NCBI GenBank assembly: GCA_964550175.1
Contig: CAZJXP010000001.1
Coordinates: forward strand, 248,294-312,293
Source: an uncultured Methanosarcinales archaeon
GTDB lineage: Archaea; Nanobdellota; Nanobdellia; Woesearchaeales; ARS49
DNA: 64,000 bases
Direction of reading: 5' to 3'
The notes under the pieces: generated by a model
Database searches by the model: none
What the model was told of the DNA's origin: nothing
The model's input: the letters and a program-made list of their open reading frames with translations, nothing else
Made by a program: the position numbers and the translations under genes
In this document: positions 4,201-37,058 of the stretch, one piece after another
Layout of the letters: each line of letters starts with the position of its first letter
How positions within the stretch are numbered: the stretch's first letter is position 1

Positions 4201-4446
4201 GTGTCATTAGTGGTCAAGCGCACGTACAAAGCACTTCGACCCATCATTCTCAAGGCGTTTGCAAAGGAGCAAAAGACGGTAAATCAAGTTGCTACTGAAA
4301 CCGGCATCAACTGGAAAACCGTCGACAATCACACCATCTACCTCACGGGACGAGGATTTCTGAAAGCGATTTTCATTTCACCATTTGTCAAGATTTACGC
4401 CATCACCGACAAGGGCATTGACGCGCTCAAGGGAGGACTTAAGTGA
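4201..4446 (+). CDS. small winged-helix DNA-binding protein (putative transcriptional regulator)
   Basis: 81 aa with an HTH-like core (TVNQVATETGINWKTVDNHTIYL) and wing (ITDKGIDAL). Paralogous in pattern to ORF 48949..49224. Overlaps glgA by 4 nt. Confidence 0.55.
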   Translation: MSLVVKRTYKALRPIILKAFAKEQKTVNQVATETGINWKTVDNHTIYLTGRGFLKAIFISPFVKIYAITDKGIDALKGGLK

Positions 4447-7596: not shown

Positions 7597-8246
7597 GCCA
7601 CAAATCGTTACGTGACGTAAACGACCCCTTCTTCGTGAAGGACGGAACGGCGCTAAAGAGCCTTTACGATTTAGAACGCGAACTGCGCAACATGAGCGCG
7701 GAACAGTTCTCGCACCACGTGAATTCGGCGAAGAACGACTTCTACAGCTGGATCCACCACACCATCAACGATCACGACTTGTCATTGAAGCTTTCGAAGA
7801 TAAATAATCAAAAGAAGATGGCGGACATCGTCGAGAAGCACATACTGTCGTTGGAGCAGGCGCAGACTACTAAGAAAGCCGCCGTGCAGAAAAAAACAAT
7901 CTCGAGCTTAAGGCGGATTGCGTCTAAGCCCGTCGCAAAGGTCGAGCTGGATTTGGCGCCGCTGAAGCACGAGCGCAGATACGAATCATTGCTTAATCCC
8001 GCGCCCGTCCCGATGTCGGAACTGCCGAGCGTCGACTCTGTCGAAGACAGGCTACGGTCGAAATTAGCCGCGCTGCCGAACACGACCGTGACGATTACGG
8101 AGCCGCAAGTTGAAGCCGCTCAAAACATAAGTGCGCCTGAGACCGTCGAGGAACAGTCGAACCTGATGCGGCACTTAGTGCATTACTCGTTAGGACTGAT
8201 GGCGGGAATACTGGCAGGTTTGGTTTTGGCGAAGTTCTTTATCTGA
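7593..8246 (+). CDS. hypothetical protein, paralog 3 with C-terminal TM anchor
   Basis: ATGA overlap with paralog 2. The N-terminal 70 aa share the family domain (LKSLYDLERELRNMSAEQFSHHVNSAKNDFYSWI). C-terminal TM (LGLMAGILAGLVLAKFFI). Confidence 0.6.
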   Translation: MSHKSLRDVNDPFFVKDGTALKSLYDLERELRNMSAEQFSHHVNSAKNDFYSWIHHTINDHDLSLKLSKINNQKKMADIVEKHILSLEQAQTTKKAAVQKKTISSLRRIASKPVAKVELDLAPLKHERRYESLLNPAPVPMSELPSVDSVEDRLRSKLAALPNTTVTITEPQVEAAQNISAPETVEEQSNLMRHLVHYSLGLMAGILAGLVLAKFFI

Positions 8247-8703
8247 GCTTTCGCTCAAGCTCCTTTCTCAATAAATTGATGTGCAGCTCAAACTTCAGCT
8301 TAAACGACTTCCAGTCATCGTACTTCAACAACTGACCTCTATAATTTATCGCGTTCCGTTTTAGCCTGATTGTCTCCAAGAATTCCCAATCGACATCCAA
8401 TGACGAGTGCTTGAAACAGAGATAGGCGTTCTTGCACTGATGGTTGTCGGCAGCGATGCCGTCGAACAGCAGATACGCCTCGATAAGCCCCCGCAATGAC
8501 TCGTAATGGTCCCTGAACACGAACGTCCAGTCCGTGCTGTCCTTCGGGATATCCGCTGACTTGCGGTTGATGAACTCCAATCCTTTTTCCGCGACGAGCT
8601 TCAACGACCTGATGAACTCGATATCAATGGACTTTTCTTTTATGCTTCCCGTGCTGATGCAGAACTCGTACGTGGCGTCAAGATTGTCGATCGTAAGCTT
8701 CAC
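8239..8703 (-). CDS. HEPN-domain protein (toxin partner of HEPN/MNT pair)
   Basis: 154-aa helical protein immediately downstream of, and 4-nt overlapping, the MNT gene. Contains an R-x4-6-H-like region (RLKRNAINYRGQ). Confidence 0.65.
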   Translation of the reverse strand: MKLTIDNLDATYEFCISTGSIKEKSIDIEFIRSLKLVAEKGLEFINRKSADIPKDSTDWTFVFRDHYESLRGLIEAYLLFDGIAADNHQCKNAYLCFKHSSLDVDWEFLETIRLKRNAINYRGQLLKYDDWKSFKLKFELHINLLRKELERKLR

Positions 8704-9251
8704 GCGACCTCTGCGACGTCATTGATTTGGCCTTTTACAACATAGCCGTTGATGACATTGGCCATCAGTCCGGTCTTTATGCCGTCGATTTCTTTCTTGC
8801 TTTTGAAGACGTGCAGCTCGATTCTTTTCTTGAGCTTACGCTCGAATTCGCGCTTGTCGAAACCAGAACTGTCGCCGAAAATAAAAACGTCAACATCAGA
8901 CTCTTTGTACCAGTCGCCTTTCACCATGCTGCCGAACAATATGACGGTTTTCGCGGACTTTAACGACAATAACTTCGGGATGAGCCCGCTGTTGTGCAGC
9001 TGCTCCAAAGCGTAGACTCTCTTAAGTGATTGATAATAGGGATTGTTCGCGCCAGCGGTGTAATGCGGAAATCTGCCCTTTACTTTCACGTAGATGAGCG
9101 CGCCTTCGTCGACGCACTTGTTTAGCCACTTGATTGCGACCGCTTTCGTTACCTTCGCTTCTTTGATTATCTCCTTGAGATGCCATTCCTTCAGCGGGCT
9201 GTTTTCGAGGATTAATTTCACCACTGATGATTCCTTACTTGGACTCGCCAT
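8700..9251 (-). CDS. minimal nucleotidyltransferase (MNT) with N-terminal wHTH
   Basis: Pol-beta-type NTase motif GSMVKGDWYKESDVDVFIF. Confidence 0.8.
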   Translation of the reverse strand: MASPSKESSVVKLILENSPLKEWHLKEIIKEAKVTKAVAIKWLNKCVDEGALIYVKVKGRFPHYTAGANNPYYQSLKRVYALEQLHNSGLIPKLLSLKSAKTVILFGSMVKGDWYKESDVDVFIFGDSSGFDKREFERKLKKRIELHVFKSKKEIDGIKTGLMANVINGYVVKGQINDVAEVA

Positions 9252-9463
9252 AATTGGTATGACTGAGATAGACTATTTAAAGGTTGCCCTTGTAATGGTC
9301 GATCACGATATTTGATGTGAATATATAACCACACAAACTAGAACCGCAAATCTTCCGCTTTTTCCGGAAAGTTTTCGGTTTTTCTCGAGCAAACGTTATG
9401 AATTCTGTTTGGTTATGTTTGTTCATGAGCGAAACTTTAATAAGTAAGCCCTGCCTTACCGAA

Positions 9464-9718
9464 GGCATGGAGCTCGTGCATATGTCAAGCAAAGGCCAGA
9501 TAGTGATTCCGCTGCAGGTGCGCAAGCACCTGAAGCTCACGCGCGGATCACGGCTCGTGCTGGTGGAACAGAAAGGGATGGTCGTTCTCCGAAAGGAAGA
9601 CGACGACACTATCCTGACGCCGGCTGACAAAAGAGCGATTGACCGTGCACGTCGAGACATTCGAGAAGGAAAAGGTATCACTCTCGACCAACTCGAAAAA
9701 GAACTCGGCTATCGATGA
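9464..9718 (+). CDS. AbrB/SpoVT-MazE family antitoxin
   Basis: SSKGQIVIPLQVRKHLKL is a swapped-hairpin AbrB fold signature. A TATA-like ctttaataag lies about 25 nt upstream. An alternative start is at 9482. Confidence 0.65.
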   Translation, partial: GMELVHMSSKGQIVIPLQVRKHLKLTRGSRLVLVEQKGMVVLRKEDDDTILTPADKRAIDRARRDIREGKGITLDQLEKELGYR

Positions 9719-9966
9719 CCATAAGCATTCTGCCGGCAGCAGAAAAGTTTCTCCGCAAATGCGAAAAAGAGCTATTTCTTCGCCTACGCGAACGCATTTA
9801 TTCCCTTGAACATAATCCGTTTCCTCCTGATTGCGAACGCCTAAAAAGCAAAGAAAAAATCTTCAAGGTACGCGTTGGCGACTACAGGATATTCTATGAC
9901 TACTTCTCTGAAACACTCATCATCTTGAGAATCAGAAAACGGGATAATGCCTACTTGAATGACTAA
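9715..9966 (+). CDS. relE: RelE/ParE-family toxin
   Basis: 83 aa. KVRVGDYRIFYDY...LIILRIRKRDNAY matches the RelE/StbE core. ATGA overlap with the antitoxin. Confidence 0.75.
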   Translation: MTISILPAAEKFLRKCEKELFLRLRERIYSLEHNPFPPDCERLKSKEKIFKVRVGDYRIFYDYFSETLIILRIRKRDNAYLND

Positions 9967-12311
9967 CGCTTGTTCGCAAAGACAAATTGGTAGTCCTTGC
10001 CTTCTAACAACGTTATGAGCGCGTTCTCGTACGGGAAGAACGTGTAGGTCGCGGATGGTAATGAATCTAAGTTTATTCTTTCCTCGTTCTGGATTTGGCT
10101 TATTACCGTGGCGTTTGTGGCTTCTAAGAAGTTCAATACTGGCTTTCCTGTGGCTACGAAATCCTTGAACTCCCAACGGTTCGTTCCCTTGTTGACGAAG
10201 AACCTGTACTCCATCATGAACGTGGTTTGGTCCTTGCCGAGAATTGCTTTTACTGTTGGACTGCCGACGTTTTCAACTGTAACACCGGTAAACGCCTTGA
10301 AATTGTCGATGCACTTGATTGTTCTGGCTTTCGTATCCTCTCCTACGTCTAATTCTATTCTTTCTAATGGTAATTGGTTGTCAACCCCTTGGAGGTAGTC
10401 GAAGGCGGTTGTTGGCGTGGTTTGGAACGGGGTTTGCAAGGCGAGATGACCTCCTTGGAGGCCTAATACTTTCAAGGTGTCTTCGCCCGCGAGTTTAAGA
10501 CAGTTGTTGACGTACTCTTGCACGGTTGATTCTGATTTTACTACAATATGGTCTGGGACTGTGATGAAAAGCAATAACATGGCTACGGCTAAGATTACGA
10601 CGCCTAAGAGCATGAAGATGGTTAATTGGCCGCGGGATGAGCGTTTACTTTTTTTACCACTGCTGACCCCGGCAGATTTTGAGTTAGTGGCTCGATTGAG
10701 CTTTGAATGATGGCCTAAACGCGTCCAATCTTGGCGGTAAAAAGTCTTGCCGGGGCGCGACATGGCAACTCCGGCTAATATCACCGCGAACGAAGCGAAC
10801 AGCAACGCGTGAACTGAAGTGAGATGCTTGATTAATTCTGCAATCTTACTGTGTCCTGCGGGGTAGACGGTCAAGACAACCCCATTCCTCTGGTAATCAA
10901 CCGTGTTGTCGTCCACTTTCATGACCGAAGGGCTGTACGCGGTGCGGTAAGACTTGATCCAGGACTGCGTGAGCTTTTCTTTGGTTATCTTGTCGTTGAT
11001 GGTGAGCAAGCGTTCGGTTGACGTTCCATGCTGGATGGCCTCTTCGATGGTTATGTAGTTGCTGACGACCGTCTTGTACGGAGGGGCGTCGTTCAGGATC
11101 AAGACGTCGTTGATGAACGCGTTGTCCTTGTCGAACGTCAGGATGGCTTTCGCGTCCTTGTTGCCCGTTGTGAAGAACGTGACCAATCCTTCCGACTTGC
11201 CGTCCTTCTTTATTTGTGGCTTGTTGAGGTCGACGATTCCCCTGATTTCCAACGCGTGGTTCGGAAGGTCGAAGATCGAGCAGGACTTGCAGGACTTCAC
11301 TTCAGGCGGGAACGCGTCGGAGTCGGACTTTCTCAGGAAGATATCGTGATTGTCCTGCCAGGCACGGATGCTGAAGTCTTTAGTTGCGTCCTTCGCATCA
11401 TAGGTGTACAACGTGACGGGCTCCATATGGATGTGCTGCATCCCGTCAGTTCTTGAGACTTCGACCTTTGCGGAATTGTTAGATTCTACTGTTTCCGTTA
11501 TTCCGTTCTTTTCCAATTCGATTTGGACATCTATTAGGTCTAATACGGTTGTTGTGGTGCTCTTTGAAATGACTAAAGAGGAATCATCTGAGAGAGACTT
11601 GAAATCGTACTGGTTCGTCGAACAGTCCTTGATCTTGAATTCGGAATCCTTATCCGCGTCGATGGTCACGTCGGTTTTAGCCGTAATCTTCGCGTTTTCA
11701 ACATCTTCCATGTAAACGCAGCTCGCCCAGACGGAATCTGCTTTCTTTACGTCAATCGTCTTGTCGCAATAATTGACTTTATCGAGCTTAGTTGCGATAG
11801 TGTCGGTTTCTACGAGAGAATCGGCTGTGTCGGCGGTTAAACAACCATTTTCGTATTTTACATTCTTGCCGTTGGTGATGACTATGGGGCCTTGCTGGAG
11901 GGAACCGACGGAAGCGATTGAGTAGCCGCCGCCTTGGACAGAAACGCCCGTTACATCAGCAGCCTTGCCAGAACCTTTCGGAGTATCCATACTTTTTGCG
12001 TATGTTAAATGACCACTTGCATCAACTTTCCCGCCAACAACATGCGTGAAAACATTACCATCAGCATCCGTAAATTTGTCCGTATCAACATTATAGGATC
12101 CATCAGGATTTTTGGTTGCCGTACCACCTTCATAAGTGGCGCCATTGGCATCTTTAGCCATTGTGTCAGGAGTAATATCTTGTTTCACACCAGCATCGCC
12201 ACCTCCACCCGGACCATCACTTGGAGGAGGAGTTGTTCCATCAGCGATTACTGCGACTGAAAGTAAAAGTAGAACAACAAGTAGTATAGGGATAACACCT
12301 CTTTTACTCAT
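9963..12311 (-). CDS. large secreted surface protein, with signal peptide and internal hydrophobic anchors; an interspersed repeat lies in frame at 10643-10746
   Basis: N-terminal signal MSKRGVIPILLVVLLLLSVAVIADG. A TM segment plus basic tail (LLFASFAVILAGVAMSRPGK) is typical of an archaeal C-terminal anchor. It is followed by repeat-encoded sequence and then a second TM segment. The 782-aa ORF may really be two genes, roughly 10750..12311 and 9963..10640. Confidence 0.55.
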   Translation of the reverse strand: MSKRGVIPILLVVLLLLSVAVIADGTTPPPSDGPGGGGDAGVKQDITPDTMAKDANGATYEGGTATKNPDGSYNVDTDKFTDADGNVFTHVVGGKVDASGHLTYAKSMDTPKGSGKAADVTGVSVQGGGYSIASVGSLQQGPIVITNGKNVKYENGCLTADTADSLVETDTIATKLDKVNYCDKTIDVKKADSVWASCVYMEDVENAKITAKTDVTIDADKDSEFKIKDCSTNQYDFKSLSDDSSLVISKSTTTTVLDLIDVQIELEKNGITETVESNNSAKVEVSRTDGMQHIHMEPVTLYTYDAKDATKDFSIRAWQDNHDIFLRKSDSDAFPPEVKSCKSCSIFDLPNHALEIRGIVDLNKPQIKKDGKSEGLVTFFTTGNKDAKAILTFDKDNAFINDVLILNDAPPYKTVVSNYITIEEAIQHGTSTERLLTINDKITKEKLTQSWIKSYRTAYSPSVMKVDDNTVDYQRNGVVLTVYPAGHSKIAELIKHLTSVHALLFASFAVILAGVAMSRPGKTFYRQDWTRLGHHSKLNRATNSKSAGVSSGKKSKRSSRGQLTIFMLLGVVILAVAMLLLFITVPDHIVVKSESTVQEYVNNCLKLAGEDTLKVLGLQGGHLALQTPFQTTPTTAFDYLQGVDNQLPLERIELDVGEDTKARTIKCIDNFKAFTGVTVENVGSPTVKAILGKDQTTFMMEYRFFVNKGTNRWEFKDFVATGKPVLNFLEATNATVISQIQNEERINLDSLPSATYTFFPYENALITLLEGKDYQFVFANKR
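10643..10746. repeat. complete MITE-like repeat copy located in frame inside ORF 9963..12311
   Basis: TTTACTTTTTTTACCACTGCTGACCCCGGCAGATTTTGAG...CCAATCTTGGCGGTAAAAAGTC, with an internal hairpin GCTCgattGAGC. Confidence 0.6.
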
Positions 12312-12344: not shown

Positions 12345-13460
12345 TTACTTCTTCTCATACTCAACTTTGGACCATCGTTCTTTCTCAGTTCGTTTATTTT
12401 GTGAGCGCCAAACAAAGGAACCATTGGGTGCTGTGAGGTTCGTACTTGCCCAATATTTACAAATGTCACGCGCCCACGCTTTAACATATTTTGTTTCTTG
12501 AGGGGCACCTGCAAGAACGTCAAGAACCTTTATCTTACCATCATTTTTCTCAGGTGTTTCACCTTTTACGACATCATATTTAGCAACAATGAACAAGGAA
12601 GGTTCAGCAATAGAACCAAACTGTTTCATGACCTCCTTCAGATCATCTTTGACCGCAGTGTTCTCCGCATCATACACTTTAAGCGGCACACCCAAAACCT
12701 TACTCGCATACTTTGCAAGAATGGCAGAACGAATGGATAAAATTGTTGCATTATCTTTTCCATTAAAATCACACATTAATACAAGACTTTTATCATCTTT
12801 CAATTCAGCAATTTCTTTTGCAAATTCTCCTTTCCCGATATAAGACACTTTAGCATCACTAGCAAAATCTTTGTCATCAAAAACTTCTTTCGCGGTTTTG
12901 TATTTTGCTTCAAGTTTTTGGGCTAAATCATCGGTAAAATCATCGATATTCACTTCTTTAACATCTGCTTGTATTTTCGGGTCTTCTGCGTATACTCGTG
13001 GTGTGTTTAGTCCTGAGAATCCGAATGCGGTGGTTGTGAGTATGGCTGCGTAGGCGATGTTGTTACGTGCTTTGTGCCAGAATGATTTCTGTAAAGGCAC
13101 TTGTTCTGCGTTTTGTATTGCGTTGTCGATGCTCATGATGATTCTTGCCTTGTACGTTTCGTACTGTTTTGCCCGCTTTTGCCCTTTTTGGTCGGGCAAT
13201 CCTAATGACAAATGTTCTTTGAATAGTGTGATGTCTTGCCTGAACACGTCTAGCCAAACAACGGCTGTTTCTGCGTGTTTGCGAGCCGTTCCGGTGACGT
13301 TCTGTGTTACCGTGACTGCTGCAGTGCGCAACAGCTCAATCTCCTGCAAAACGGTTTGAGCGTCTTGCAAGGTCATGTTCGCAAACCGCAAATCTCGGCG
13401 GCGCGAACTTAATGTTTTGACTCCGTTGCTGACCGACTTGAGCTGGCGAAACACATCCAT
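12345..13460 (-). CDS. hypothetical membrane-associated protein
   Basis: 371 aa with one TM segment (IAYAAILTTTAFGFSGL) and no recognisable family. Confidence 0.5.
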   Translation of the reverse strand: MDVFRQLKSVSNGVKTLSSRRRDLRFANMTLQDAQTVLQEIELLRTAAVTVTQNVTGTARKHAETAVVWLDVFRQDITLFKEHLSLGLPDQKGQKRAKQYETYKARIIMSIDNAIQNAEQVPLQKSFWHKARNNIAYAAILTTTAFGFSGLNTPRVYAEDPKIQADVKEVNIDDFTDDLAQKLEAKYKTAKEVFDDKDFASDAKVSYIGKGEFAKEIAELKDDKSLVLMCDFNGKDNATILSIRSAILAKYASKVLGVPLKVYDAENTAVKDDLKEVMKQFGSIAEPSLFIVAKYDVVKGETPEKNDGKIKVLDVLAGAPQETKYVKAWARDICKYWASTNLTAPNGSFVWRSQNKRTEKERWSKVEYEKK

Positions 13461-13654
13461 GTCAAGATGGACGTATTACGACTATATAAAACAAATCAGT
13501 ATATAATTGTTATGACTGTTTTCGTCGATGATGGACATGAAAACAGCAGAATTCGCCTTTTTGCCCCTTATAAATGACCTTAAAATCTATATAAAATATA
13601 TAAATTATAAGGACAATTAATATATACTTCCTTTAGCTCTATCTTTACTACTTA
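13461..13654. promoter_or_regulatory. AT-rich divergent promoter region with several TATA-like boxes
   Basis: ctatataaaaca, ttataaatga and atatataaatta lie between divergently oriented genes. Confidence 0.4.
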
Positions 13655-14290
13655 ATGGTGGTGTTGAGGGAAGACAAAATGAGCTTAACGTCCATTGTTC
13701 AAAACACCATACGTAAAACAAGCCCGGTAATCGCCAGACGACTGTGCGACCGATCTCTCGCAAAGGCGCGTTCTTCTGCTAAGGAGTATGTTCGCCATAA
13801 AGATGAATTCCGGCTCTACCTCCAATTCTGTGAACGCGCCCAACCGTCAAGATATGATGACTGGCAAATGAATTACAATATCCGCAAATACCAAGAAACT
13901 GCACAAGACCTTGTCGAACGCACCAACCACAAATATGCCCGCGCAAGAGCGTGGGAAACACGCCAAGAGGTCGCGGAAGAACGCCTCGTCTTTTATACAG
14001 GCACGGCACACGTTCTCGCAAATTGCCCGGTCGAACGCCTCCTCCATTACCGCACGCTCGTTGAAGATGTGCGCAGTATCGCTCCCACTTCAACAGTGCT
14101 CGGCAAAGTAGACGAAAAAATCATTGGAGAAGGCACCTGCGACAAACACGACACGCAAGACCACATTACCATGTTCAAAACAGCAGGCTATGAAAAGGAA
14201 GCAAAAGCGCTCGCGGCGCTCTACGCAGAACAAATCATGCACGACCAACCACAACGCGCATGGGAATTCATGAAACAGACCATGGCTTAA
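13655..14290 (+). CDS. hypothetical protein
   Basis: 211-aa ORF with no recognised motifs. An alternative start is at 13679 (MSLTS). Confidence 0.5.
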   Translation: MVVLREDKMSLTSIVQNTIRKTSPVIARRLCDRSLAKARSSAKEYVRHKDEFRLYLQFCERAQPSRYDDWQMNYNIRKYQETAQDLVERTNHKYARARAWETRQEVAEERLVFYTGTAHVLANCPVERLLHYRTLVEDVRSIAPTSTVLGKVDEKIIGEGTCDKHDTQDHITMFKTAGYEKEAKALAALYAEQIMHDQPQRAWEFMKQTMA

Positions 14291-14337
14291 ATCTGAATAA
14301 CCACCACAATAAAACATAAAATCACGAGAGGATAAAT

Positions 14338-15297
14338 ATGAAAACAAGATTTCCGGGAATCTCAGCATTGGTGAGGTGTAAAGATGAAGGCGATTCGGTA
14401 TACGCAAGTTTATTTTCAATAAAAGATCTTGTTGATGAAGTTGTCTTTGTTGACAATGAATCGGTGGATAATAGCATTGCCGAAGCTGAAAGATTTAAGA
14501 ACGATCATTTCAAAGATAAAAACTTCATTATTCGCCCTTATGCACACAGTGTTGCAGGAGGCAATCATCTTGCGGACATGAATAATTTTGCCTTATCCTT
14601 GACTTCAACCGAGTGGGTTATGAAGTGGGATGTTGACACTATTGCGTACACTGCGGGAGAAAACTCCATCTTAAAGCTCAAAGAACGCGTATTCGCTAAC
14701 GGTTCTCCTGTGGACATTATAAGATACAGTTTTTTTAATCTCTGGGGTGATTATTTCCATTGCCTGCAAGCAAGATTCGGCGATCCTGAATATGGCCCGA
14801 CTGGTTGCGGATTGGAGTTGCAAGGTTGCGAAAAAAGACTGTATCGGTATGATGATGATATTCATTTTGAAATGGAACGTTATGCTGAACACTTTTGGGA
14901 AGCTATGCGAGTACCTCTTACCTATAAAGAAATGCAGTTAAGTATTGTGCCTGGCGTACACTTGCAGACGGTTAAACCTTCAAGCTTGGTCGGTCGTAGA
15001 TTTTTTCTTACGCGCTTTACACCAGGTGAGCGAGAAAAATATGGAAGTTTTACGAAATTTGTGCAACATGAGCTACGAGAAGCAAATTGTCCTTCTCTTG
15101 AGCTTTTCGGCAAAAAACTCATTATTGATGAAGTGAATGTACGTGGTACAAAGTTCAAACAGCCGCATCCTGATACAATGTACCAATTGGGTTTGATGAA
15201 AGAACTCCCATATGAACTCATTTTTGATGAAACTAACGTCTGCGTTGATAGAAAAGAACGAAATGCAGCACACGATTACTTGAGGGATGGAGAATGA
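14338..15297 (+). CDS. glycosyltransferase family 2-like (GT-A fold)
   Basis: N-terminal ISALVRCKDEGDSV...VVFVDNESVDNS fits the GT2 pattern (I..TYNE...VDDGSTD). AT-rich codon usage. Confidence 0.7.
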   Translation: MKTRFPGISALVRCKDEGDSVYASLFSIKDLVDEVVFVDNESVDNSIAEAERFKNDHFKDKNFIIRPYAHSVAGGNHLADMNNFALSLTSTEWVMKWDVDTIAYTAGENSILKLKERVFANGSPVDIIRYSFFNLWGDYFHCLQARFGDPEYGPTGCGLELQGCEKRLYRYDDDIHFEMERYAEHFWEAMRVPLTYKEMQLSIVPGVHLQTVKPSSLVGRRFFLTRFTPGEREKYGSFTKFVQHELREANCPSLELFGKKLIIDEVNVRGTKFKQPHPDTMYQLGLMKELPYELIFDETNVCVDRKERNAAHDYLRDGE

Positions 15298-16388
15298 ACT
15301 TATTATTTTGCCTTCATTCATTTAACATTAATGGAGTATTAAACCAGAATCTTTCATTAGCAAAACACATTCTGAAGAAACTGCCTGATGTGCGCATTAC
15401 GGTCATTGCACCAACAAAGAAAGAGGGGATGCTTGCATATCTCGCATTAGGAATTGATGCGAAAGCGATAAATCCTGCAACCGATAAGGATGGGTTCAAT
15501 ACTTTGGCAAATGGGTCACATGACGCTATTTTATTTGAGTCGTTATTTTCATTAAATTATTATGGTAGTTTATTGGCCGGCAATCAAAAAAAATCTGTAT
15601 TGCACATTCATGAAGAGTTGCCTCTCACCCATAAAAGCGACTTATGGAATGTTGATGCAAAATCAATAGATGATTATTTTTCAGAACTGGTCAATTCTAC
15701 AGTTATATTTTCGGGTCAAAAAAGTCAACTCCATTATTCAAAAAAGCTCTTGGAATACAAGATTCAATCGCATGTTATCAATAATGTGGTTGATGTTGAT
15801 AAGTTTAAAGCAATAAAAAGGAGGGACGATGGCGCATTTAATATTGTTCAAGTAGGGACAATCTATGAGCGCAAAGGAGCAATACAAACATTCGAAGCAT
15901 TCAACATATTATTGAAAAAATATTGCATTGAAAATGCAAACCTCGTCTTCGTAGGGGCACGTAAAGGAAAACCTGCCGAAGAAGATTATGTGCAGCAACT
16001 AGTCAAAAGAACAAAGCTGCTGCACTTGGAAGATCAGGTTAAAATAGAACCGGTAATTACTGAACCAAGCAAATATTACGAAAATGCTTCGGTTGTAACA
16101 CTTCATTCTCAATCAGAATCTTACCCCACAGTATTTCTTGAAGCATGTTATTTGGGAATTCCGTTTGTGGGAAGTGTTGTTGGATGTTCTCAAGAGATGG
16201 AACGCAAATACGGAAACGCACTATTATTTCCCATTGGGGATATTGAAAAACATGCACAATGTTTGCACCAAATTTACGAATCTCAATTTCCTGAAAAGAA
16301 AATGACCCGGGAACAGTTAGAAGTACATTTTGAAAATAATCACGATAAAATGATAACTCGGTTGCTCTTGAAAAATGGAAACTCTTGA
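15294..16388 (+). CDS. glycosyltransferase family 4 (GT-B fold)
   Basis: C-terminal ESYPTVFLEACYLGIPFVGS is the E-x7-E GT4 motif. Confidence 0.75.
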   Translation: MNLLFCLHSFNINGVLNQNLSLAKHILKKLPDVRITVIAPTKKEGMLAYLALGIDAKAINPATDKDGFNTLANGSHDAILFESLFSLNYYGSLLAGNQKKSVLHIHEELPLTHKSDLWNVDAKSIDDYFSELVNSTVIFSGQKSQLHYSKKLLEYKIQSHVINNVVDVDKFKAIKRRDDGAFNIVQVGTIYERKGAIQTFEAFNILLKKYCIENANLVFVGARKGKPAEEDYVQQLVKRTKLLHLEDQVKIEPVITEPSKYYENASVVTLHSQSESYPTVFLEACYLGIPFVGSVVGCSQEMERKYGNALLFPIGDIEKHAQCLHQIYESQFPEKKMTREQLEVHFENNHDKMITRLLLKNGNS

Positions 16389-17658
16389 AGAAAAAATAGA
16401 CTTGCGCATAGAGCAGGAAACAGAATTGGTATTCCAAGCGTATATTACGAATGACGTCATGACCGGCATGGCAAGAGACGAAGTGACTCAATTAGCAAAG
16501 AAGTCGAAGAATAGGGTTCTTGCTGATAGTGGTGTAATGATGCAAATCATGCAAGAAGCAGAAGAAGCATACATAAAATCTTTAGCAAATGTGAACGAAG
16601 AACTCGCTGAAGAATATGTCCGCATTAAAAAAAGTGCTTGTCCGATTGAAGCTAAAAAAACAATATTTTCTGAATGCAAAAAAACATTAGATGATGTCAT
16701 TTTCAAAAGAAAATTCATTGAAGCCAGAATTAGTCTGAATCTTGATCGTGACGCTCAGCACATTAAATCTTCGATTAAACAAGTACTGTTGCGTGATTAT
16801 AGGGACCTCGTGAGTGGTTTAACAAGGAGTTACGCATCGATGAACAGTGATGGTGAAGCAAACAAATTTATTGAGTTTTTACTTGATTTTAGTCAAGACA
16901 GCACGGGTATTTTATACGAACGTGAATTTAGACGAATCCTTGCTGACAAAATGAAACCGGCAGATATTTTGATTTACAAATGCTTGCGGTTCACCCATGA
17001 TGAAGGTCATCTTAATATCTGTCCTCATTTAGACGATTATCGCACTCAGGATATCAATGGAAAGCCAGTTATGTTTAAAGGAGCTTCAGACACGTATCAA
17101 CTCAAAAAAATATTGTATCTTGCCAAGCACCTGAAAAAATATTCCGGAAGTAAACAACCAATTCTGATTGTGGCTGATGGTGATATGTTTAAGTATGGCC
17201 CTGAAAAATATGCCGAGTTCAGCAGCAAAATACACGAGTATTTAGTAGAGATACGAGCTTATTGCCCCGCCTTAGATGTACGTTTAGAAACTGAATATTT
17301 CGACAACCAACAAGAATACAAAGAACTTGAAAAACGGGTTAAAAGTTCAATTCTACAGCACCAAAACGACTATATCGCGCCTGAAGAAACCCAAAGAATT
17401 ATTGAAGATTACGCGTCACGATTCCGTGCTATGCTTAAAGACTGGACGATTGAAAAAAATCAATATTACTCGGTTACGTCTATTTCCCGTAACATCGCTC
17501 AGGGAATGTTTTTATCCTATGAAAAACGTAAGGCAATTGTAGTTGTATTCAATAATCCTGATAGTACTGGCGCAAGATTTAATCTGAAAACGGAAGAGAA
17601 AGTGCCATTTATCGGGTATCCTAAGTTGTCATCCAAAGTGGTGAATAACAATGACTGA
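16375..17658 (+). CDS. hypothetical protein (427 aa) within the AT-rich glycosyltransferase island
   Basis: Long ORF with no family motif recognised by eye. Overlaps both neighbours. Confidence 0.55.
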   Translation: METLEEKIDLRIEQETELVFQAYITNDVMTGMARDEVTQLAKKSKNRVLADSGVMMQIMQEAEEAYIKSLANVNEELAEEYVRIKKSACPIEAKKTIFSECKKTLDDVIFKRKFIEARISLNLDRDAQHIKSSIKQVLLRDYRDLVSGLTRSYASMNSDGEANKFIEFLLDFSQDSTGILYEREFRRILADKMKPADILIYKCLRFTHDEGHLNICPHLDDYRTQDINGKPVMFKGASDTYQLKKILYLAKHLKKYSGSKQPILIVADGDMFKYGPEKYAEFSSKIHEYLVEIRAYCPALDVRLETEYFDNQQEYKELEKRVKSSILQHQNDYIAPEETQRIIEDYASRFRAMLKDWTIEKNQYYSVTSISRNIAQGMFLSYEKRKAIVVVFNNPDSTGARFNLKTEEKVPFIGYPKLSSKVVNNND

Positions 17659-18436
17659 TATTTCGCGTCACCATAATGATGTCAAAATCACGCAGAAGAG
17701 GGTCACTAAAAAGTTTACTGAAGAAAGTGGATTAGAACGAGAACTCGCGGCGGCAACACTCTTGGGTGATCAGATCCCCCTTGCGAGGATAGTGAGAATT
17801 GACCGGGCGAAAAACGCACTTATTTTTGAAAGATTTATGTACGAGTCAGGAATTGACAAGGACCCTTGTTTAAGATTATGTGAAATCGCTCGCATCTTAA
17901 AAAAGCTGCATTCTATTAGTTGTGCCAATAGTAATCTGGAAGATGCGCGTTTCCCGTTGCAAGATTTTGCTGGAACGCTTACAGCTCATGTCAGAAATAA
18001 ATATATTCATGGTCTTGCAAAATCAGGGTATTCCGTCCCCGCTGAGAATCTGCTTGACCTCGGATTAGCATTAACCCCGAAAAAATTTAGTTATGTTCAT
18101 AATGATGCGAAATGCCGACATTGTTTTTTTGATAAAAATAATCAGCTTAAAGGAATAATTGATTTTGAATACTTTGGTCTTTTTGATCCTCTTGTAGATA
18201 TAGGTAGCATTGCCGCCGATGTATTTGAATCTAATCCAAATGAGTTCAAAACGTATACACGCGCCTTTTTTGGTGAATATGGTCTTCAGGAACGGGACAA
18301 ACGTTCCGTCTTGTTTTACATGATTACGAGCAAACTCACTCAAGCGCTCAATATAGATTTGCCTTCGGGTAAAGAAAAAGACGCAAAAAAGGCACTCCAG
18401 TTAGTAAATACTTTCTCTCAAATGCAAAACCTTTAA
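17651..18436 (+). CDS. APH/choline-kinase-like phosphotransferase (small-molecule kinase fold)
   Basis: Catalytic loop VHNDAKCRHCFF and metal-binding IDFEYFG are the Brenner and DFG-like motifs of the APH family. Confidence 0.65.
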   Translation: MTDISRHHNDVKITQKRVTKKFTEESGLERELAAATLLGDQIPLARIVRIDRAKNALIFERFMYESGIDKDPCLRLCEIARILKKLHSISCANSNLEDARFPLQDFAGTLTAHVRNKYIHGLAKSGYSVPAENLLDLGLALTPKKFSYVHNDAKCRHCFFDKNNQLKGIIDFEYFGLFDPLVDIGSIAADVFESNPNEFKTYTRAFFGEYGLQERDKRSVLFYMITSKLTQALNIDLPSGKEKDAKKALQLVNTFSQMQNL

Positions 18437-18457
18437 TATATTCAAATACTTGAAATA

Positions 18458-19147
18458 ATGATGACAGGGACCATATTTCTTTCCGGAGGGGGTAATTCAA
18501 TAATTTATAAAGATTTTGACAATGCTCTATCGAAAAAAATTGCCGGTGGTAAAATATTGTGTATTCCTTTTGCTAATCAAAAAAAGAGCCGGGAAGAACA
18601 TGTCGACTGGATGAATCGAGTATTCAATAAATTTCAAAAGAGCAAAATACTGATTGTCAAGAATGTAGCTGATTTGAGAAAAATTAAAATGAACACGCTC
18701 GCACTAGTATATATCTCAGGAGGAAATACTTTTCAACTTCTAAAAAAATTAAACGTAGAAGGGATCAACATGCTAAGAGAATACTATGCGAAAGGAGGCA
18801 CTATTTATGGAAGTAGCGCCGGTGCAGCAGTGCTAGGAACGAGCATTCTAACAGCAAGTATTGATGATACCAACAAAGTACATATCGATAGTACTAATGG
18901 TTGTAATCTCATAAACGGATATTCAGTATATTGTCACTATAAGAAAGACGACCAGTGGAAATTTGATATTTTTATCAATGAACATCGGATTAAAAAAATA
19001 TTAATCTTGCCGGAAGGATCAATTATCTCCATCCAAAATAAATCCGTGCGTACAATTAAAAATACAGCGTATAAAATTAGTGCTAAAGCCAACTTAGAGT
19101 ATCAAATAAAAAAAATAAAAAAAAGAATTACTTCAATTCATACGTAA
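18458..19147 (+). CDS. peptidase S51 family (dipeptidase E or cyanophycinase-like)
   Basis: YISGGNTFQLLKKL and GSSAGAAVLG carry the nucleophile Ser, characteristic of S51. Confidence 0.75.
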   Translation: MMTGTIFLSGGGNSIIYKDFDNALSKKIAGGKILCIPFANQKKSREEHVDWMNRVFNKFQKSKILIVKNVADLRKIKMNTLALVYISGGNTFQLLKKLNVEGINMLREYYAKGGTIYGSSAGAAVLGTSILTASIDDTNKVHIDSTNGCNLINGYSVYCHYKKDDQWKFDIFINEHRIKKILILPEGSIISIQNKSVRTIKNTAYKISAKANLEYQIKKIKKRITSIHT

Positions 19148-19871
19148 TACTAACCGTCTTCTGGACAGAGACGTCTGAAGGGATGACTTCGACGGCTTTC
19201 GCGATGCTGCCTTCGGCCATCATCGTGTCGCGGCCGTACATCGGCCACGGGTAGTAGTTGTCGCTTTCCTGGATTGACAACACCTTGCCGAGCTTTGCGC
19301 CGGCGGTTGCCGTAAGAGACTCAGCCTTCTGCTTCGCGTCCGCAACAGCAAGTGCGCGGACTTGGTTGTCGTACTGCTTCCGCAATTCGTCCGTCAGGCC
19401 GAACTGCACGTTCTGGATCAGCCCGTTCTGGCCGCCAATCGCCTCAACGACGGCTCCTGTTTTGGTCAAGTCCTTGACCGTCACTTGGATGCTGTGCGTG
19501 CCTCGGTAGCCCTTGATGGTCTGCTGGCCCGTTTCAGGATTCCATTGATAGTCCGGGTAGACATTGAACCCGGTGGTCTGGATGTCCGCATCGGTGATGC
19601 CCTGCGCCCGGATGGCTGAGAGAATCCTGTCCGTGCTCTTGCTCAACGTTTCTTGAGCGGAGCTCGCGTCCATGCCCGTGCTTTCAACAAGCACCCAGAT
19701 GTCCGCCTTGTCAGGGGACACTTTCATGTCGCCGAGACCGGAGACTGAAATCACATTTTGCGTGCTCGTTCCTTGGTTCTGGTACATCACGAACGCGACG
19801 AGGAGGATTGCTGCGATCGCGACGATCCAGGGTAAGTTGTTTTTTTCCATTTTGATCACCTTTTTGACCAT
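19128..19871 (-). CDS. SIMPL/DUF541 family protein with N-terminal membrane anchor
   Basis: TM at the N-terminus. VSGLGDMKVSPDKADIWVLVES and overall similarity to the SIMPL 26-kDa periplasmic protein family. Confidence 0.7.
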   Translation of the reverse strand: MVKKVIKMEKNNLPWIVAIAAILLVAFVMYQNQGTSTQNVISVSGLGDMKVSPDKADIWVLVESTGMDASSAQETLSKSTDRILSAIRAQGITDADIQTTGFNVYPDYQWNPETGQQTIKGYRGTHSIQVTVKDLTKTGAVVEAIGGQNGLIQNVQFGLTDELRKQYDNQVRALAVADAKQKAESLTATAGAKLGKVLSIQESDNYYPWPMYGRDTMMAEGSIAKAVEVIPSDVSVQKTVSITYELK

Positions 19872-21130: not shown

Positions 21131-22768
21131 TTATTTAAAAACTGTCTGACACAGTTCGACGAACGTCGCGTTCGACCATAATTGAACTGGACTGCCTTGG
21201 GACGAGAGATGGGACGCGCTGCTCAGTTCGCCCGATACGTTGATGACATCCAATTTTTGCGACTTCATGCCCGCTTCCGTGATCTTGTGAATGTATTTCG
21301 CATAATGCTTCGCATCAAGATGTTTCATCGCGATGGCCGCGAGGTTGTTGAGCCAGAACCAGGAGTCGCCATGATGGTAGCTTTTTGCGTTCTCTCCTGT
21401 GCTGTCCTTCGTGAACGACGGGCTGGCTTTGTCGATGGTTGCGAGTCCACCCCAGTCGAGCCACAACGCGTCCAACGCACGGTCGAATCCATCCGTCCAT
21501 TCTTGCTTCGTGAACAATTCAGGATAAAGATAGGCGGCAAGGAAAAGGTTGGGGCGTATCTCAGAATGTCCCTTGCCGTCTATGATTGTGCGGTTCTTGA
21601 GGAAATCTCGCCTCACTGCGACTTTCAATTGCAATTCTCGTACATCCTGCTTGCCTGAGAGTTTGCTGTTCAGCTTAAGCACCGCTAATGTTAACGCCTG
21701 GATTTCGATGTTCGCGCCTTCTCTTGATTCAGAATCCATCCAGGTCTCGCCTGCCAAGTTAACGATGACACCTTCATTGAATCTCGTCTTGAATAACGAG
21801 TCTAAGACGGCGTTGAGCTTCTGCTTGACGAACGCGAGCTCCTTGCTCGTGACAAATGTTTTGAGCACTCTCGCTTTTTCCAACGCTTGCAGGAATTCTC
21901 CAATTCTGAAAAAGAGCCAACCGGGAGCGTCGGCAGACTTCGCGCCGTCGCGTTTCGATTGCAACGTGACGTCAACGTTTGCGAGATGCTTCCACAGGAT
22001 TTTCTTGACCGTCGCGAACTCTTTTGCGAGGATAAGGGATTTCAACGAGATTAATTCGTCCCTTGCCCAAACCTGCGAGAACCACGGCAAGCCCGCAAGA
22101 AGTCCGTCGGGAGTTTTCAGCGCGTCGATGGCGAGGAGGGCGTTCGCGACTTCGGTTGATTTTCCTTTGGCGAGTAACGCGAGACGTTTCGCTTTTTGCG
22201 ACTTGAGTTTCGAGCGCTGCGCGAACATATTGATTGCCGTCTCAACGGCCTCGTTCTTGTTCGTGCTGAACGCGAACACCGCGTCCTTGATCCTGAGCTT
22301 GCACGCCTGGTACACCCAACGCGTCCACGGCCAGGAATTCCGTTGCTGGTCTTTCGAGTACATCCGTTCGGTCCATTTCTGGATCGGGAGGTATTCCAGT
22401 TCATCCCCGAAAATGGCGACGTGCAATTGGTATTCGCTCGGGTTACCCATGCCGTCCCTGGGATCGTTGAACTTCGAAAACGAGAAGACCAAGCACTTGT
22501 GCATCTGCGAAACTTCGTACGCCCGGCCCCACTGGCGGTTGTCGAACAGTTCACCGCAATCTAAATTGAGCGTGGTTTCCGTTGCGTTCGGAAGATTAAC
22601 GACAAACGCATTCTGGTTGTCCGGCATCCAGCAACATTCTGCCGGAACGTCCAACGACTCGATGACGCGGAACACGCGATTGTCTTTGCGCAGGAACACG
22701 CCGTCGTAACGGCTCTGCGGAACTCTGAGTAATGCGAACGAGCCTTGGCCGTTGCTGAGCAAAATCAT
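21131..22768 (-). CDS. glycogen debranching enzyme, amylo-alpha-1,6-glucosidase (GDE_C) family
   Basis: C-terminal YHHGDSWFWLNN motif and (alpha/alpha)6-barrel-like length of 545 aa. Confidence 0.8.
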   Translation of the reverse strand: MILLSNGQGSFALLRVPQSRYDGVFLRKDNRVFRVIESLDVPAECCWMPDNQNAFVVNLPNATETTLNLDCGELFDNRQWGRAYEVSQMHKCLVFSFSKFNDPRDGMGNPSEYQLHVAIFGDELEYLPIQKWTERMYSKDQQRNSWPWTRWVYQACKLRIKDAVFAFSTNKNEAVETAINMFAQRSKLKSQKAKRLALLAKGKSTEVANALLAIDALKTPDGLLAGLPWFSQVWARDELISLKSLILAKEFATVKKILWKHLANVDVTLQSKRDGAKSADAPGWLFFRIGEFLQALEKARVLKTFVTSKELAFVKQKLNAVLDSLFKTRFNEGVIVNLAGETWMDSESREGANIEIQALTLAVLKLNSKLSGKQDVRELQLKVAVRRDFLKNRTIIDGKGHSEIRPNLFLAAYLYPELFTKQEWTDGFDRALDALWLDWGGLATIDKASPSFTKDSTGENAKSYHHGDSWFWLNNLAAIAMKHLDAKHYAKYIHKITEAGMKSQKLDVINVSGELSSASHLSSQGSPVQLWSNATFVELCQTVFK

Positions 22769-23688
22769 TTTTCCCCTCGGTAGAACGCCGCGGCGTCCTC
22801 GGGCGCGACGGTGTTGATGATGATTCCCGAGCCGAATTCGAAGCCCGCGAACAGGCTGATTCTCGGCAATAGTTCTAAATGCAAGTGCAGGTCTTCATTT
22901 GACGGCGAATATTTGAGGACAAGATTGTAGGAACAGTTGAGCTTGAGAAGTTTGCCGAGGACTTGCTTGAGCAGATTTGCTAAACTTGTCGAATTAATTT
23001 CGTTCAGATTTCTGACGTGCGCCTTCGGGAACAGCCAGCATTCGTAGTTGAATCTCGACGCGTACGGCGTGAACGCGACCCAGTCGTTGTTTTCGAAACA
23101 GCGTCTCGCGCTGTTCTTTTCTGATGAAATGATGGCGCAATGAGGACAGTCGATGAACTTTCGTCTGGCAAGAACTAATTCATTTATTTCCGTCGGGATG
23201 ATAGGTGTCGCGATGACCTGACTGTGGCTGTGGATGAGGCTTGTGCCGGCATCGACGCCTGAATTCTTGAAAACGGAAACGTACGCGTGATTTTTTGACA
23301 ACGCGTCGATGCGGTTCTTGTACGCGTCAATGACCAAACTGATTTCTTTTTCGGATAACTCTGCGAGTTGCCGATGGTCGGGGGTTTCAACAATGACTTC
23401 GTGCGTGCCGGACGCTTTCGCAACGGTGTAAAAACGATTGTCCGTTTTGAGCCGGAAGTTATCGGGATGAACGGCCGCGAACCTGTTTTCGAACCATCGG
23501 ACTTGCCATTCTTTTCCGTACGGAAGCCTTCCGAGTTCCGTTGGTGTTAACGATTCGTGACCGGGACAGAAGAAGCACGACGTGGTCGCGATGGTAGATG
23601 CCTTCTGGAACTCATTAGGCCGTTCGCCACGCTTCGGCGCGATGATCACCCAACGATCCAGGAGGTAGTCTTTCCTCAGTTCGCCCAA
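22765..23688 (-). CDS. galactose-1-phosphate uridylyltransferase-like (GalT/HIT superfamily) nucleotidyltransferase
   Basis: Zn motif CFFCPGHE and active-site HSHSQV (H-x-H-x-Q). Confidence 0.8.
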   Translation of the reverse strand: MGELRKDYLLDRWVIIAPKRGERPNEFQKASTIATTSCFFCPGHESLTPTELGRLPYGKEWQVRWFENRFAAVHPDNFRLKTDNRFYTVAKASGTHEVIVETPDHRQLAELSEKEISLVIDAYKNRIDALSKNHAYVSVFKNSGVDAGTSLIHSHSQVIATPIIPTEINELVLARRKFIDCPHCAIISSEKNSARRCFENNDWVAFTPYASRFNYECWLFPKAHVRNLNEINSTSLANLLKQVLGKLLKLNCSYNLVLKYSPSNEDLHLHLELLPRISLFAGFEFGSGIIINTVAPEDAAAFYRGEK

Positions 23689-36642: not shown

Positions 36643-37058
36643 TAGTGCAAATACCCCTGAATCAATCCTAGTGTGTACGCAACGACCTTCTCATGCTCCC
36701 CTTCCCAGTGCGGCGGAACGCTGCGTTCAGCGATAAACCCCACATTCATGAGAATATCCGTCGCAGCCTCGGCAAGAATGCGCGCCTCAAGCATGTCGTT
36801 CGTTTTCAGACAGTGATCCCGAATCGGCTCCAACATGTCGTCACCATACTCCAGCAACCAACGATAGCCCTCGCAGTCTTTGCGACGAGCCATATCCCCG
36901 TTATGCTGAAAAGTCGCAGCATGTTGGTCTAACAGCTTGAACGCAATCGCAAATTTTTCGCAGGACGATTCGCTCAACTGCACCCCATTGAATTCCCGCA
37001 GTTCAGGCACTTGTAGCACGAACCGTTTCTTACAGTCACGTGGCCGCAGGAAGAGCAA
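36642..37058 (-). CDS. hypothetical protein, start uncertain
   Basis: The ORF overlaps the nrdJ 3' end by 85 nt. A TTG at 36977 preceded by ggggtg, or the ATG at MARRK, would remove the overlap. Confidence 0.35.
   Translation of the reverse strand: MLFLRPRDCKKRFVLQVPELREFNGVQLSESSCEKFAIAFKLLDQHAATFQHNGDMARRKDCEGYRWLLEYGDDMLEPIRDHCLKTNDMLEARILAEAATDILMNVGFIAERSVPPHWEGEHEKVVAYTLGLIQGYLH

Follow-up and report, generated by a model that had tools for sequence, protein, structure and literature searches.

Cyclodipeptide synthases (CDPSs) divert the translation machinery into natural-product synthesis, and together with MshC and IsnA they are precedents for enzymes of metabolite synthesis that derive from aminoacyl-tRNA synthetases (aaRSs). 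Paralogues of methionyl-tRNA synthetase (MetRS) have likewise been found in metabolite synthesis (PMC2922099), and the CDPSs are known to have neither HIGH nor KMSKS, the ATP motifs of the aaRSs (PMC3105412, PMC2922099). Here we describe a five-gene segment, positions 14338-19147 of a 64-kb stretch of archaeal DNA (contig CAZJXP010000001.1; hereafter the window), that encodes a GT2-like and a GT4 glycosyltransferase (GT), a 427-residue protein that we call X, a kinase resembling the APH and choline kinases and a serine peptidase of family S51. The reading that we favour, with about even confidence, is that the segment represents a rare mobile cassette, here intact, in which X is the constant element and which would serve as a small-molecule-making operon. 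A foreign-looking island as such is ordinary; what is new is the X family and the three-variant cassette that goes with it.

The X family is invisible to sequence annotation. X has no match in Pfam, NCBIfam, PADLOC or the PDB sequence set, and a word-seeded search with X, or with a 21-sequence profile, returned only X itself and one known member. Its relatives came to light only when 1.84 billion cluster representatives were searched exhaustively with HMMER, which gave a family of 27 proteins including X, mostly of 400-430 residues and 21-34% identical to X. Profile searches of PDB and Pfam at permissive E-values produced noise only, a scan of IMG/VR with a six-sequence sub-alignment produced no homologue, and tblastn of X against plasmid and phage collections produced no match. 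Neither the family nor the cassette was found described in the protein-family libraries searched or in the limited literature covered.

A confident AlphaFold2 model of X, built from the 21-sequence alignment (mean pLDDT 91.4), places the protein beside the tRNA synthetases and the CDPSs. Eight helices (residues ~1-175) are followed in the model by a Rossmann-like α/β domain (~176-420). Foldseek of this model against the PDB gave 27 matches at E<=1e-3, all of them tyrosyl-tRNA synthetases (TyrRSs) or engineered TyrRSs except the isonitrile synthase PIsnA (9dh4), with PvcA next in line just above the cut-off. In a library of viral structures the matches were tryptophanyl-tRNA synthetases (TrpRSs) and TyrRSs of giant viruses and viral CDPSs. 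The predicted structure thus has the HUP/Rossmann catalytic fold with a CP1 insert that characterizes class I aaRSs, as well as the class-Ic aaRS-like fold without ATP motifs that characterizes CDPSs, and on the strength of the model we hold it very probable that X has a class-Ic aaRS-like fold.

The HIGH motif is present in none of the 21 family members, and the only KMSKS-like strings in those members are two isolated, non-conserved ones at unrelated positions. Nine residues are invariant in all 25 of the 25 sequences compared (E36, K45, A62, I115, C203, R205, G211, W357 and G377), and D268 and D270 of an ADFDLxKF motif, Q242-L243, R372 and N403 are nearly so. The hallmark motif of the family, [hydrophobic]4-Y-x-C203-[L]-R205-x-x-[H/N]-x-x-G211, starts where the only long and strongly hydrophobic strand before the first Rossmann helix ends. 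The loop after strand 1 bears HIGH in the aaRSs and G-x-S37 in the CDPSs; it is the substrate site of HUP enzymes (PMC2922099), and the S37C variant of the CDPS AlbC still makes a covalent aminoacyl thioester (PMC3105412). From the topology of the model we infer that Cys203 may sit at the position of the CDPS nucleophile.

About 15 loci that encode X (numbered L004 to L034) came from look-ups of gene context and from a single metagenome scan with the six-sequence sub-alignment, the scan contributing seven of them, and the genes around X fall into three variants. In variant A a GT2-like gene, a GT4 gene and X are accompanied by an APH-like kinase and/or a peptidase of family S66 or S51, and this arrangement, first seen in the window, recurs in L004, L018, L020/L021 and L027. 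The proteins of L020/L021 (GC 0.33-0.36) are 53% (GT2-like), 36% (GT4), 32% (X) and 42% (APH) identical to those of the window, and beyond these genes come that of an S66 peptidase and, after it, a DDE transposase-like open reading frame (ORF). The order of genes in L027 is that of the window, with an S66 peptidase; L004 (GC 0.57) has a GT2-like gene whose product is 48% identical, GT4, X and S66; and L018/L019, on a 663-kb contig, has a GT2-like gene, GT4, X, a second GT4 and S66. Two partial contigs that resemble L020/L021, L024 and L025, carry X and APH, and the first of them also S66 and transposase-like ORFs.

Variant B, found in L016/L017, L022, L023 and L026, is made up of an ABC1-like kinase, an AAA_33 P-loop kinase, GT4, X and an S-adenosylmethionine (SAM) methyltransferase. 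Variant C (L032, L033 and L034) has no GT; it comprises a His_Phos_1 phosphatase, S51, a radical-SAM enzyme, a second radical-SAM-type protein (~357 residues, with CxxxCxxC) and X. In L034 (1405-2595) the His_Phos_1 and S51 domains are fused into one protein of 396 residues, which argues that phosphate removal and amide cleavage belong to one pathway. A further locus, L015, encodes a methyltransferase, X, a GT-B-like protein and S51. In a neighbour-joining tree the B and C clades of X stand apart, with the A members around B; the clades of X track the cassette variants, which indicates that X and its partners diversify jointly. Throughout, X is the constant element, phosphate-handling enzymes are always around it, and there is usually a Ser-His-Glu amidase, for which S51 and S66 are interchangeable. 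A core X with interchangeable tailoring enzymes is the pattern of a small-molecule biosynthetic cluster, and we consider it likely that the cassette is a functional unit. The large protein that a sequence-only reading of this DNA had left uncharacterized is thus the conserved core of a cassette, with a predicted fold like that of class-Ic aaRSs and CDPSs.

The gene for GatD, which is specific to archaea, adjoins the L021 cassette, and the host of that locus is accordingly archaeal. L026 lies near genes for type I-E Cas3 and Cse1 in DNA of GC ~0.6 and is probably bacterial; taken with L021, it indicates that the X family crosses domains.

Single in-frame stop codons interrupt otherwise intact, conserved cassette genes at three independent related loci, the window copy being intact. 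In the GT2-like gene of L018 (6310-6312) TAG replaces the codon of the invariant Trp of KWDVD; in that of L021 (8593-8595), and identically in L020, TAA replaces the codon of the invariant Gln of PGVHxQTVKPS; and in L027 a stop follows YQLD in X, within 4830-4862. These stops could reflect recent pseudogenization, perhaps owing to a cost of carriage, or they could be read through.

Two other loci have neighbours of some interest. Directly after the variant B cassette of L022, positions 4780-5994 encode a 404-residue protein with a class II phenylalanyl-tRNA synthetase (PheRS) core and an FDX-ACB domain, the architecture of the monomeric mitochondrial PheRS; it could be a housekeeping oddity or a copy for resistance or supply. 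Beside the variant C cassette of L032 (11265-13305) lie genes for a radical-SAM/SPASM enzyme, a 45-residue ORF product and a GNAT acetyltransferase, an arrangement like that of ribosomally synthesized and post-translationally modified peptides.

The four domain calls that the sequence-only reading had made for the partners of X in the window hold, although that of the GT2 falls just under the Pfam threshold: PF00535 is matched with E 1.8e-4 and 22.0 bits, the gathering cut-off being 23.3 bits. The GT2-like protein has the motifs VDNESVDNS (residues 38-46) and W97-D-V-D100 (DxD), and D39-N-x-S-x-D-N-S and W97-D-V-D100, both hallmarks of the GT-A type, are invariant in the alignment of its homologues. 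Only three such homologues, 48-49% identical, were found among 5.8 billion clusters; two of them (P0029 and P0030) bear precomputed PF00535 matches, and one is named as a glycosyltransferase of a Candidatus Woesearchaeota archaeon. A structure model built from four sequences (pLDDT 43) was too poor to confirm a GT-A fold.

The GT4 matches PF00534 with E 6e-22 and 78.4 bits (cut-off 26.4) and PF13692 with E 1.6e-16, and by its sequence should be a retaining-type glycosyltransferase of the GT-B fold. Its top NCBIfam matches, BshA, EpsE and MshA, are all far under their cut-offs, and no NCBIfam GT4 equivalog applies to it. A homologue of this GT4 lies directly upstream of X in every variant A and variant B locus.

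The kinase matches PF01636 with E 3.4e-14 and 53.6 bits (cut-off 23.2). It has both the H150-N-D152 catalytic loop and the I-D171-F-E metal-binding motif, with His157 in place of the usual Asn of HxDxxxxN. The top PDB matches are a choline/ethanolamine-kinase family protein and APH(2''), and no NCBIfam aminoglycoside-resistance (APH) model comes near its cut-off. Homologues that are 40-42% identical adjoin X in L020/L021/L024 and in L025, and L027 too has a PF01636 kinase beside X.

The S51 peptidase matches PF03575 with E 6.6e-24 and 85 bits. Its Ser120, His160 and Glu175 align with the triad motifs GWSAGA, PH and EQR of PepE (1fy2) in an alignment that also included Lmo0363, and as far as the alignment can tell the Ser-His-Glu triad is intact. 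The earlier description of the protein as like an Asp-dipeptidase or a cyanophycinase stands for the family and the triad and fails at the level of the orthologue, the NCBIfam scores being 54 bits against a cut-off of 156 for PepE and 26.6 against 126.6 for cyanophycinase. A role for this protein as the glutaminase partner of a HUP amidotransferase was considered and rejected: the nucleophile is a Ser, as in PepE, and S66 takes its place in sister cassettes.

We put the probability that the cassette encodes a small-molecule pathway a little short of even, and favour it because the five proteins look soluble, X rather than the GTs is the core, the phosphate enzymes and the amidase are conserved (and fused once) and aaRS-derived enzymes provide precedents. 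Every statement on function made here derives from gene neighbourhood and predicted structure. A clear hydrophobic segment is lacking from all five island proteins, the highest KD19 being 1.73 (GT4), and the pathway would thus probably be cytoplasmic. In the mechanism that we propose, a phosphorylated glycoside would be the joint product of the kinase and the two glycosyltransferases. X, which we take to be incapable of canonical adenylation because the HIGH and KMSKS ATP motifs are absent, would handle an amino-acid or aminoacyl-tRNA substrate, possibly as an aminoacyl-thioester on Cys203, and would load the glycoside with the aminoacyl group. The Ser-His-Glu peptidase (S51 here, S66 in the sister cassettes) would cut an unusual amide, be it in maturation, in recycling or in self-protection. 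The absence of the ATP motifs also favours an aminoacyl-tRNA-using, CDPS-like X over an ATP-dependent, MshC-like one. That X uses aminoacyl-tRNA with a Cys-thioester intermediate is nevertheless a tentative proposal, one that we think will more probably fail than hold. A fuller version is unlikely: X would be a fourth functional lineage of the class-Ic aaRS fold, next to TyrRS/TrpRS, the CDPSs and the isonitrile synthases, a Cys-dependent, tRNA-using aminoacyl transferase that loads a phosphorylated glycoside, and the cassette, mobile among DPANN archaea and some bacteria, would make new aminoacyl-glycosides, possibly for antiviral defence or host interaction, with the S51/S66 amidase for activation or self-protection.

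Several observations weigh against our account. The fold of X is assigned from a predicted model whose sequence identity to its structural matches is ~10%. That Cys203 corresponds to the CDPS Ser is argued from topology and not from a superposition, and the short strand 231-234, followed by G236-x-[S/A]238, is another candidate for the first Rossmann strand of X; the motif reads G236-x-S238 in the X of the window, and the Ser is present in only ~11 of 25 members. The cassette has no exporter, no precursor-supply gene and no recognizable resistance target. The nonsense codons at three loci imply that it is dispensable and sometimes decaying, and the position of several related loci among defence genes fits a conflict role equally well. 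As for its origin, neither an empty site nor a close relative of the host was found, so that acquisition is judged from composition and distribution; the closest sampled cassette, at 32-53% protein identity, means that the donor is unsampled, and for both reasons horizontal transfer falls short of proof.

A conflict role would make the cassette an anti-virus system that detects or poisons an invader through modification of a nucleic acid, a tRNA or a nucleotide by its kinase, GT4 and tRNA-binding, aaRS-like modules, with the peptidase or the methyltransferase as regulator or antidote. Besides L026 with its Cas3/Cse1 neighbours, L023 lies beside a gene for a 1482-residue nSTAND NTPase, L016 beside genes for a DUF4062-AAA_22-TPR protein and an N6_N4 methylase, and L018 beside Mrr_cat, PIN and AAA_14 genes, and in the window MazE/ParE and NTP_transf_2 genes lie 4-6 kb to the left of the island. 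The patchy, rare and mobile distribution would fit, the nonsense mutations in three cassettes could mean that toxicity has a cost, and a role as conflict effectors has been suggested for GT4 domains (PMC8195603). We nonetheless think such a role, although a live alternative, unlikely, since the cassette has no nuclease, no STAND or other sensor and no abortive-infection effector, none of the five island proteins matches a PADLOC 2.0 model, X homologues are absent from the phage, plasmid and IMG/VR collections searched, and a core enzyme with swappable tailoring enzymes is typical of biosynthetic clusters. A match to PF20706 ('GT4-conflict') was set aside as evidence of defence: a starch-synthase-like GT of the host, of housekeeping type, also matches it at 74 bits, and the model is thus non-specific.

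Low-GC, horizontally exchanged glycosylation clusters are common, the archaeal agl and bacterial O-antigen clusters being the models, and the segment might be a surface-glycosylation island of this kind, in which the GTs decorate S-layer, pili or lipids and the other three proteins are passengers or supply the decorated sugar. Two GTs do lie within one operon, and the host region is rich in carbohydrate genes (GT5/GT4, GH57, GDE_C, GalT, GT3). However, neither the cassette nor its relatives include a gene for a membrane protein, a flippase, an oligosaccharyltransferase, a polymerase or nucleoside-diphosphate-sugar synthesis, and the soluble appearance of all five proteins, the constancy of X rather than of the GTs, the GT-less variant C and the conservation of the kinase and the peptidase as partners rather than passengers all make a surface glycan quite unlikely. 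Of the two possibilities that the sequence-only reading had joined, a glycan or a small-molecule modification pathway, it is the second that would fit the better.

In a pathway of the mycothiol or bacillithiol type, or in one for a compatible solute, the GT4 would act on an alcohol phosphorylated by the kinase, and X would be an ATP-dependent amino-acid ligase like MshC or BshC. MshA, BshA and sucrose-phosphate synthase are models for a GT4 enzyme that glycosylates a (phosphorylated) alcohol, and the pairing of GT4 with an aaRS-like protein fits. The ATP motifs that such a ligase would call for are missing, though, and the distribution is rare and patchy, so that we regard this alternative as distinctly improbable.

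The sequence-only reading had described an AT-rich island with shifted codon usage, five tightly packed genes and no tRNA or integrase at its borders, and had suggested horizontal acquisition; the measurements bear the description out. GC is 0.506 in the 64-kb window and 0.33-0.40 in the island genes, and G+C at third codon positions (GC3) is 0.30-0.35 in the five island genes against a mean of 0.644 (sd 0.106) in the remaining 48 ORFs. In a 300-bp profile GC steps from 0.51 at 14000-14299 to 0.37 at 14300-14599 on the left, and from 0.38 at 18950-19249 to 0.51-0.58 at 19100-19549 on the right. Synonymous choice scored on a host model gives a codon z of -2.6 to -3.8 in all five island genes; outside the island, z falls below -1.5 among the window ORFs only at 12345-13460 (z -2.4) and 35264-36133 (z -3.85). 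Island and host differ in the direction of their codon preferences (AAA 0.80 against 0.46, AAT 0.70 against 0.30, TTT 0.72 against 0.27 and ATC 0.18 against 0.61). Five neighbouring outliers of composition far exceed chance expectation, and both the GC and the codon-usage profiles set the island clearly apart from its flanks.

Table 1. Coordinates of the island genes and of the two junctions in the window.
Feature	Position	Strand	Description
GT2-like	14338-15297	+	319 aa
GT4	15294-16388	+	364 aa
X	16375-17658	+	427 aa
APH/choline-kinase-like kinase	17651-18436	+	261 aa
S51-family serine peptidase	18458-19147	+	229 aa
Left junction / putative short leader	14291-14337	+	47-bp spacer, A-rich ATAAAACATAAAAT; GC drop here
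Right junction	19128-19147	.	composition step coincides with the SIMPL stop codon (19128-19130, - strand)

Consecutive ORFs of the island overlap by 4, 14 and 8 bp, and 21 bp separate the kinase from the S51 gene (Table 1). The left spacer comes after a host-like gene (13655-14290, 211 residues, GC 0.50), and a GAGAGG motif resembling a Shine-Dalgarno sequence stands 7-12 nt upstream of the ATG of the GT2-like gene; judged by sequence, the left leader may hold a promoter and a ribosome-binding site. On the right, the S51 gene converges with the SIMPL gene (19128-19871, - strand) and overlaps it by 20 bp: the S51 ORF extends 17 nt past the SIMPL stop codon, into the 3' end of SIMPL, before its own stop. 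The A-run AAAAAAATAAAAAAAAGAA lies on the island side just before this junction. The borders of the island carry none of the usual marks of mobility, be it an integrase, a tRNA target or direct repeats. No tRNA or tmRNA and no Rfam match is present in the entire 64-kb window, and a Pfam scan of the five island genes, their immediate neighbours and ~25 other window ORFs gave no integrase or transposase match. A repeat search of the borders gave no credible direct repeats, only short ones at chance level; two 17-nt stretches that agree at 82% (13708 and 19139) were dismissed as border repeats, being attributable to chance and at odds with the border given by composition.

It is highly probable that 14338-19147 was acquired horizontally, given the step in composition and codon usage at gene ends, the presence of the same gene set in unrelated genomes and the transposase-like gene beside the L021 cassette. 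Contigs with variant A span 30-57% GC. Cassette GC equals local GC in L004, L015 and L016, and elsewhere is 0.46 against a local 0.49 (L018), 0.27-0.32 against 0.37-0.44 (L021), 0.49 against 0.52-0.58 (L023) and 0.50-0.52 against 0.55-0.65 (L026); a contrast as large as 0.37 against 0.51 is seen only in the window copy. Since its composition has not ameliorated, the island would have arrived fairly recently, from a lineage of low GC that is as yet unsampled, probably another DPANN archaeon. The GT2-like homologue from Woesearchaeota and the low GC of L021, beside archaeal GatD, argue that the source was probably no distant taxon. Of the foreign origin that had been proposed, the compositional part therefore stands, but the taxonomy of the best relatives (Woesearchaeota/Nanoarchaeota) is the same for the island as for its flanks. 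Exact-match look-ups with the SIMPL flank and with X returned only contigs 100% identical to the window (SRR13076500, SRR13076506 and SRR13076528), and a contig scan with the flanking GDE_C returned relatives of only 35-38% identity, without synteny; those with informative labels are in metagenome-assembled genomes of Candidatus Woesearchaeota or Nanoarchaeota, four others are labelled uncultured Methanosarcinales and one only 'archaeon'. By these relatives the host would be a Woesearchaeota-like archaeon of DPANN type, with a small genome (roughly 1 Mb, 50% GC). That no transfer took place, and that the low GC comes from local mutational bias or from an effect of selection or expression on native genes, is highly improbable: although no mobility gene, tRNA, direct repeat or empty site was found at the island borders, the step is abrupt at gene ends and, at the SIMPL stop codon, exact, only these five adjacent genes combine a halved GC3 with inverted synonymous preferences, and homologous cassettes occur in unrelated genomes, beside a transposase-like gene.

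The window around the island includes genes for class II ribonucleotide reductases, TrmB- and ArsR-type regulators, a P-type ATPase and enolase. Genes of glycogen/α-glucan metabolism flank the variable region on both sides (4443-6826, 21131-23688 and 54989-56737) and encode a starch-synthase-like GT5/GT4 protein, GH57, the amylo-1,6-glucosidase GDE_C, GalT and a eukaryote-type GT3 glycogen synthase (PF05693). To the right of the island lie SIMPL and ArsR; to the left lie NTP_transf_2, MazE/ParE and three orphans of 782, 371 and 211 residues. An NTP_transf_2 (MNT-type) gene with an overlapping gene for a 154-residue partner is followed by a MazE-like/ParE-like pair (9398-9966), all within 8239-9966, and by virtue of these NTP_transf_2 and toxin-antitoxin genes the DNA to the left of the island is variable and accessory.

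The two other outliers of codon usage differ in position and degree. The 289-residue orphan at 35264-36133 (+) has a GC of 0.35 and a GC3 of 0.26 and lies between host-like genes; it has no match in Pfam, NCBIfam or PADLOC and is probably another small foreign insertion. The 371-residue orphan at 12345-13460 (-) is intermediate in composition (GC3 0.40), and its sole match is an insignificant one to PADLOC HamB. Next to it, 13461-13654 is a very AT-rich divergent intergenic region with many TATA-like strings (TATATAAAA, TTATAAAT, TATATAAAATATATAAATTATAAGG). Two large orphans, at 9963-12311 (-, 782 residues) and 44616-47738 (-, 1040 residues), have no Pfam match; the first is hydrophobic in an N-terminal segment and in internal stretches and may be a surface protein. 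The window also holds two nearby genes for ribonucleotide-reductase large subunits, 29998-31758 and 36974-40045 (-), one product having 586 residues and an ATP-cone and the other, of class II, 1023 residues and a C-terminal TSCPD domain.

If X does use aminoacyl-tRNA or amino acids, the three variants would amount to a new biosynthetic system that is compact and experimentally tractable, and genome-reduced DPANN archaea, usually seen as metabolic dependants, would be trading small-molecule pathways. X also adds a data point on the re-use of the class I aaRS catalytic domain outside translation. The family and its cassette therefore bear on tRNA-dependent natural products, on aaRS evolution and on DPANN biology.

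Compared with the CDPSs (AlbC, Rv2275 and YvmC), X is a larger protein, 427 residues against a single domain of ~200-300, with an extra helical N-terminal domain of 175 residues and a β-meander of ~30 residues after the first strand. The invariant residues of X, among them Cys203, Arg205, Gly211, W357 and G377, appear to differ from the conserved catalytic set of the CDPSs, which is G35, S37, Y178, E182, P184 and Y202 in AlbC numbering (PMC3105412). A scan of all 21 family members gave no CDPS Pfam match, and hhalign of the X family against MjTyrRS and AlbC gave no signal, which is a weak negative. The partners of X, namely GT4, a protein-kinase-like (PKL) kinase and an S51/S66 peptidase, are not typical of CDPSs. 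X differs from TyrRS and TrpRS, to which its identity is ~10%, in having no HIGH, no KMSKS and no anticodon-binding domain, and its extra domain is N-terminal, all-helical and unmatched; encoded as it is in a mobile accessory operon, X is no translation enzyme. The isonitrile synthases PvcA and IsnA are weaker structural matches; X has no DIT1_PvcA Pfam match, and the Fe/2-oxoglutarate oxygenase partner that is obligatory for isonitrile synthases (IsnB/PvcB) is absent at all X loci examined.

At the level of the operon, the segment resembles low-GC archaeal genomic islands in its sharp composition and codon step, its variable surroundings with toxin-antitoxin genes and its accessory functions, and differs from them in that its borders have no integrase, tRNA target or direct repeats. 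The self-protection logic of antibiotic producers includes APH kinases, cryptic phosphorylation followed by a phosphatase, and S66 hydrolases of the MccF type. Clusters of the aminoglycoside, nucleoside and microcin C types resemble the cassette in that an APH kinase, GT4, phosphatases, radical-SAM enzymes and an S66/S51 Ser-His-Glu hydrolase for unusual amide bonds surround an amino-acid enzyme; the likeness is one of gene content only, with no orthology to an enzyme of a characterized cluster and NCBIfam scores far under the cut-offs. Mycothiol and bacillithiol synthesis (MshA/MshC and BshA/BshC) resembles it in the pairing of a GT4 with an aaRS-derived enzyme that puts an amino acid on a glycoside, and also in that the acceptor of MshA is phosphorylated.

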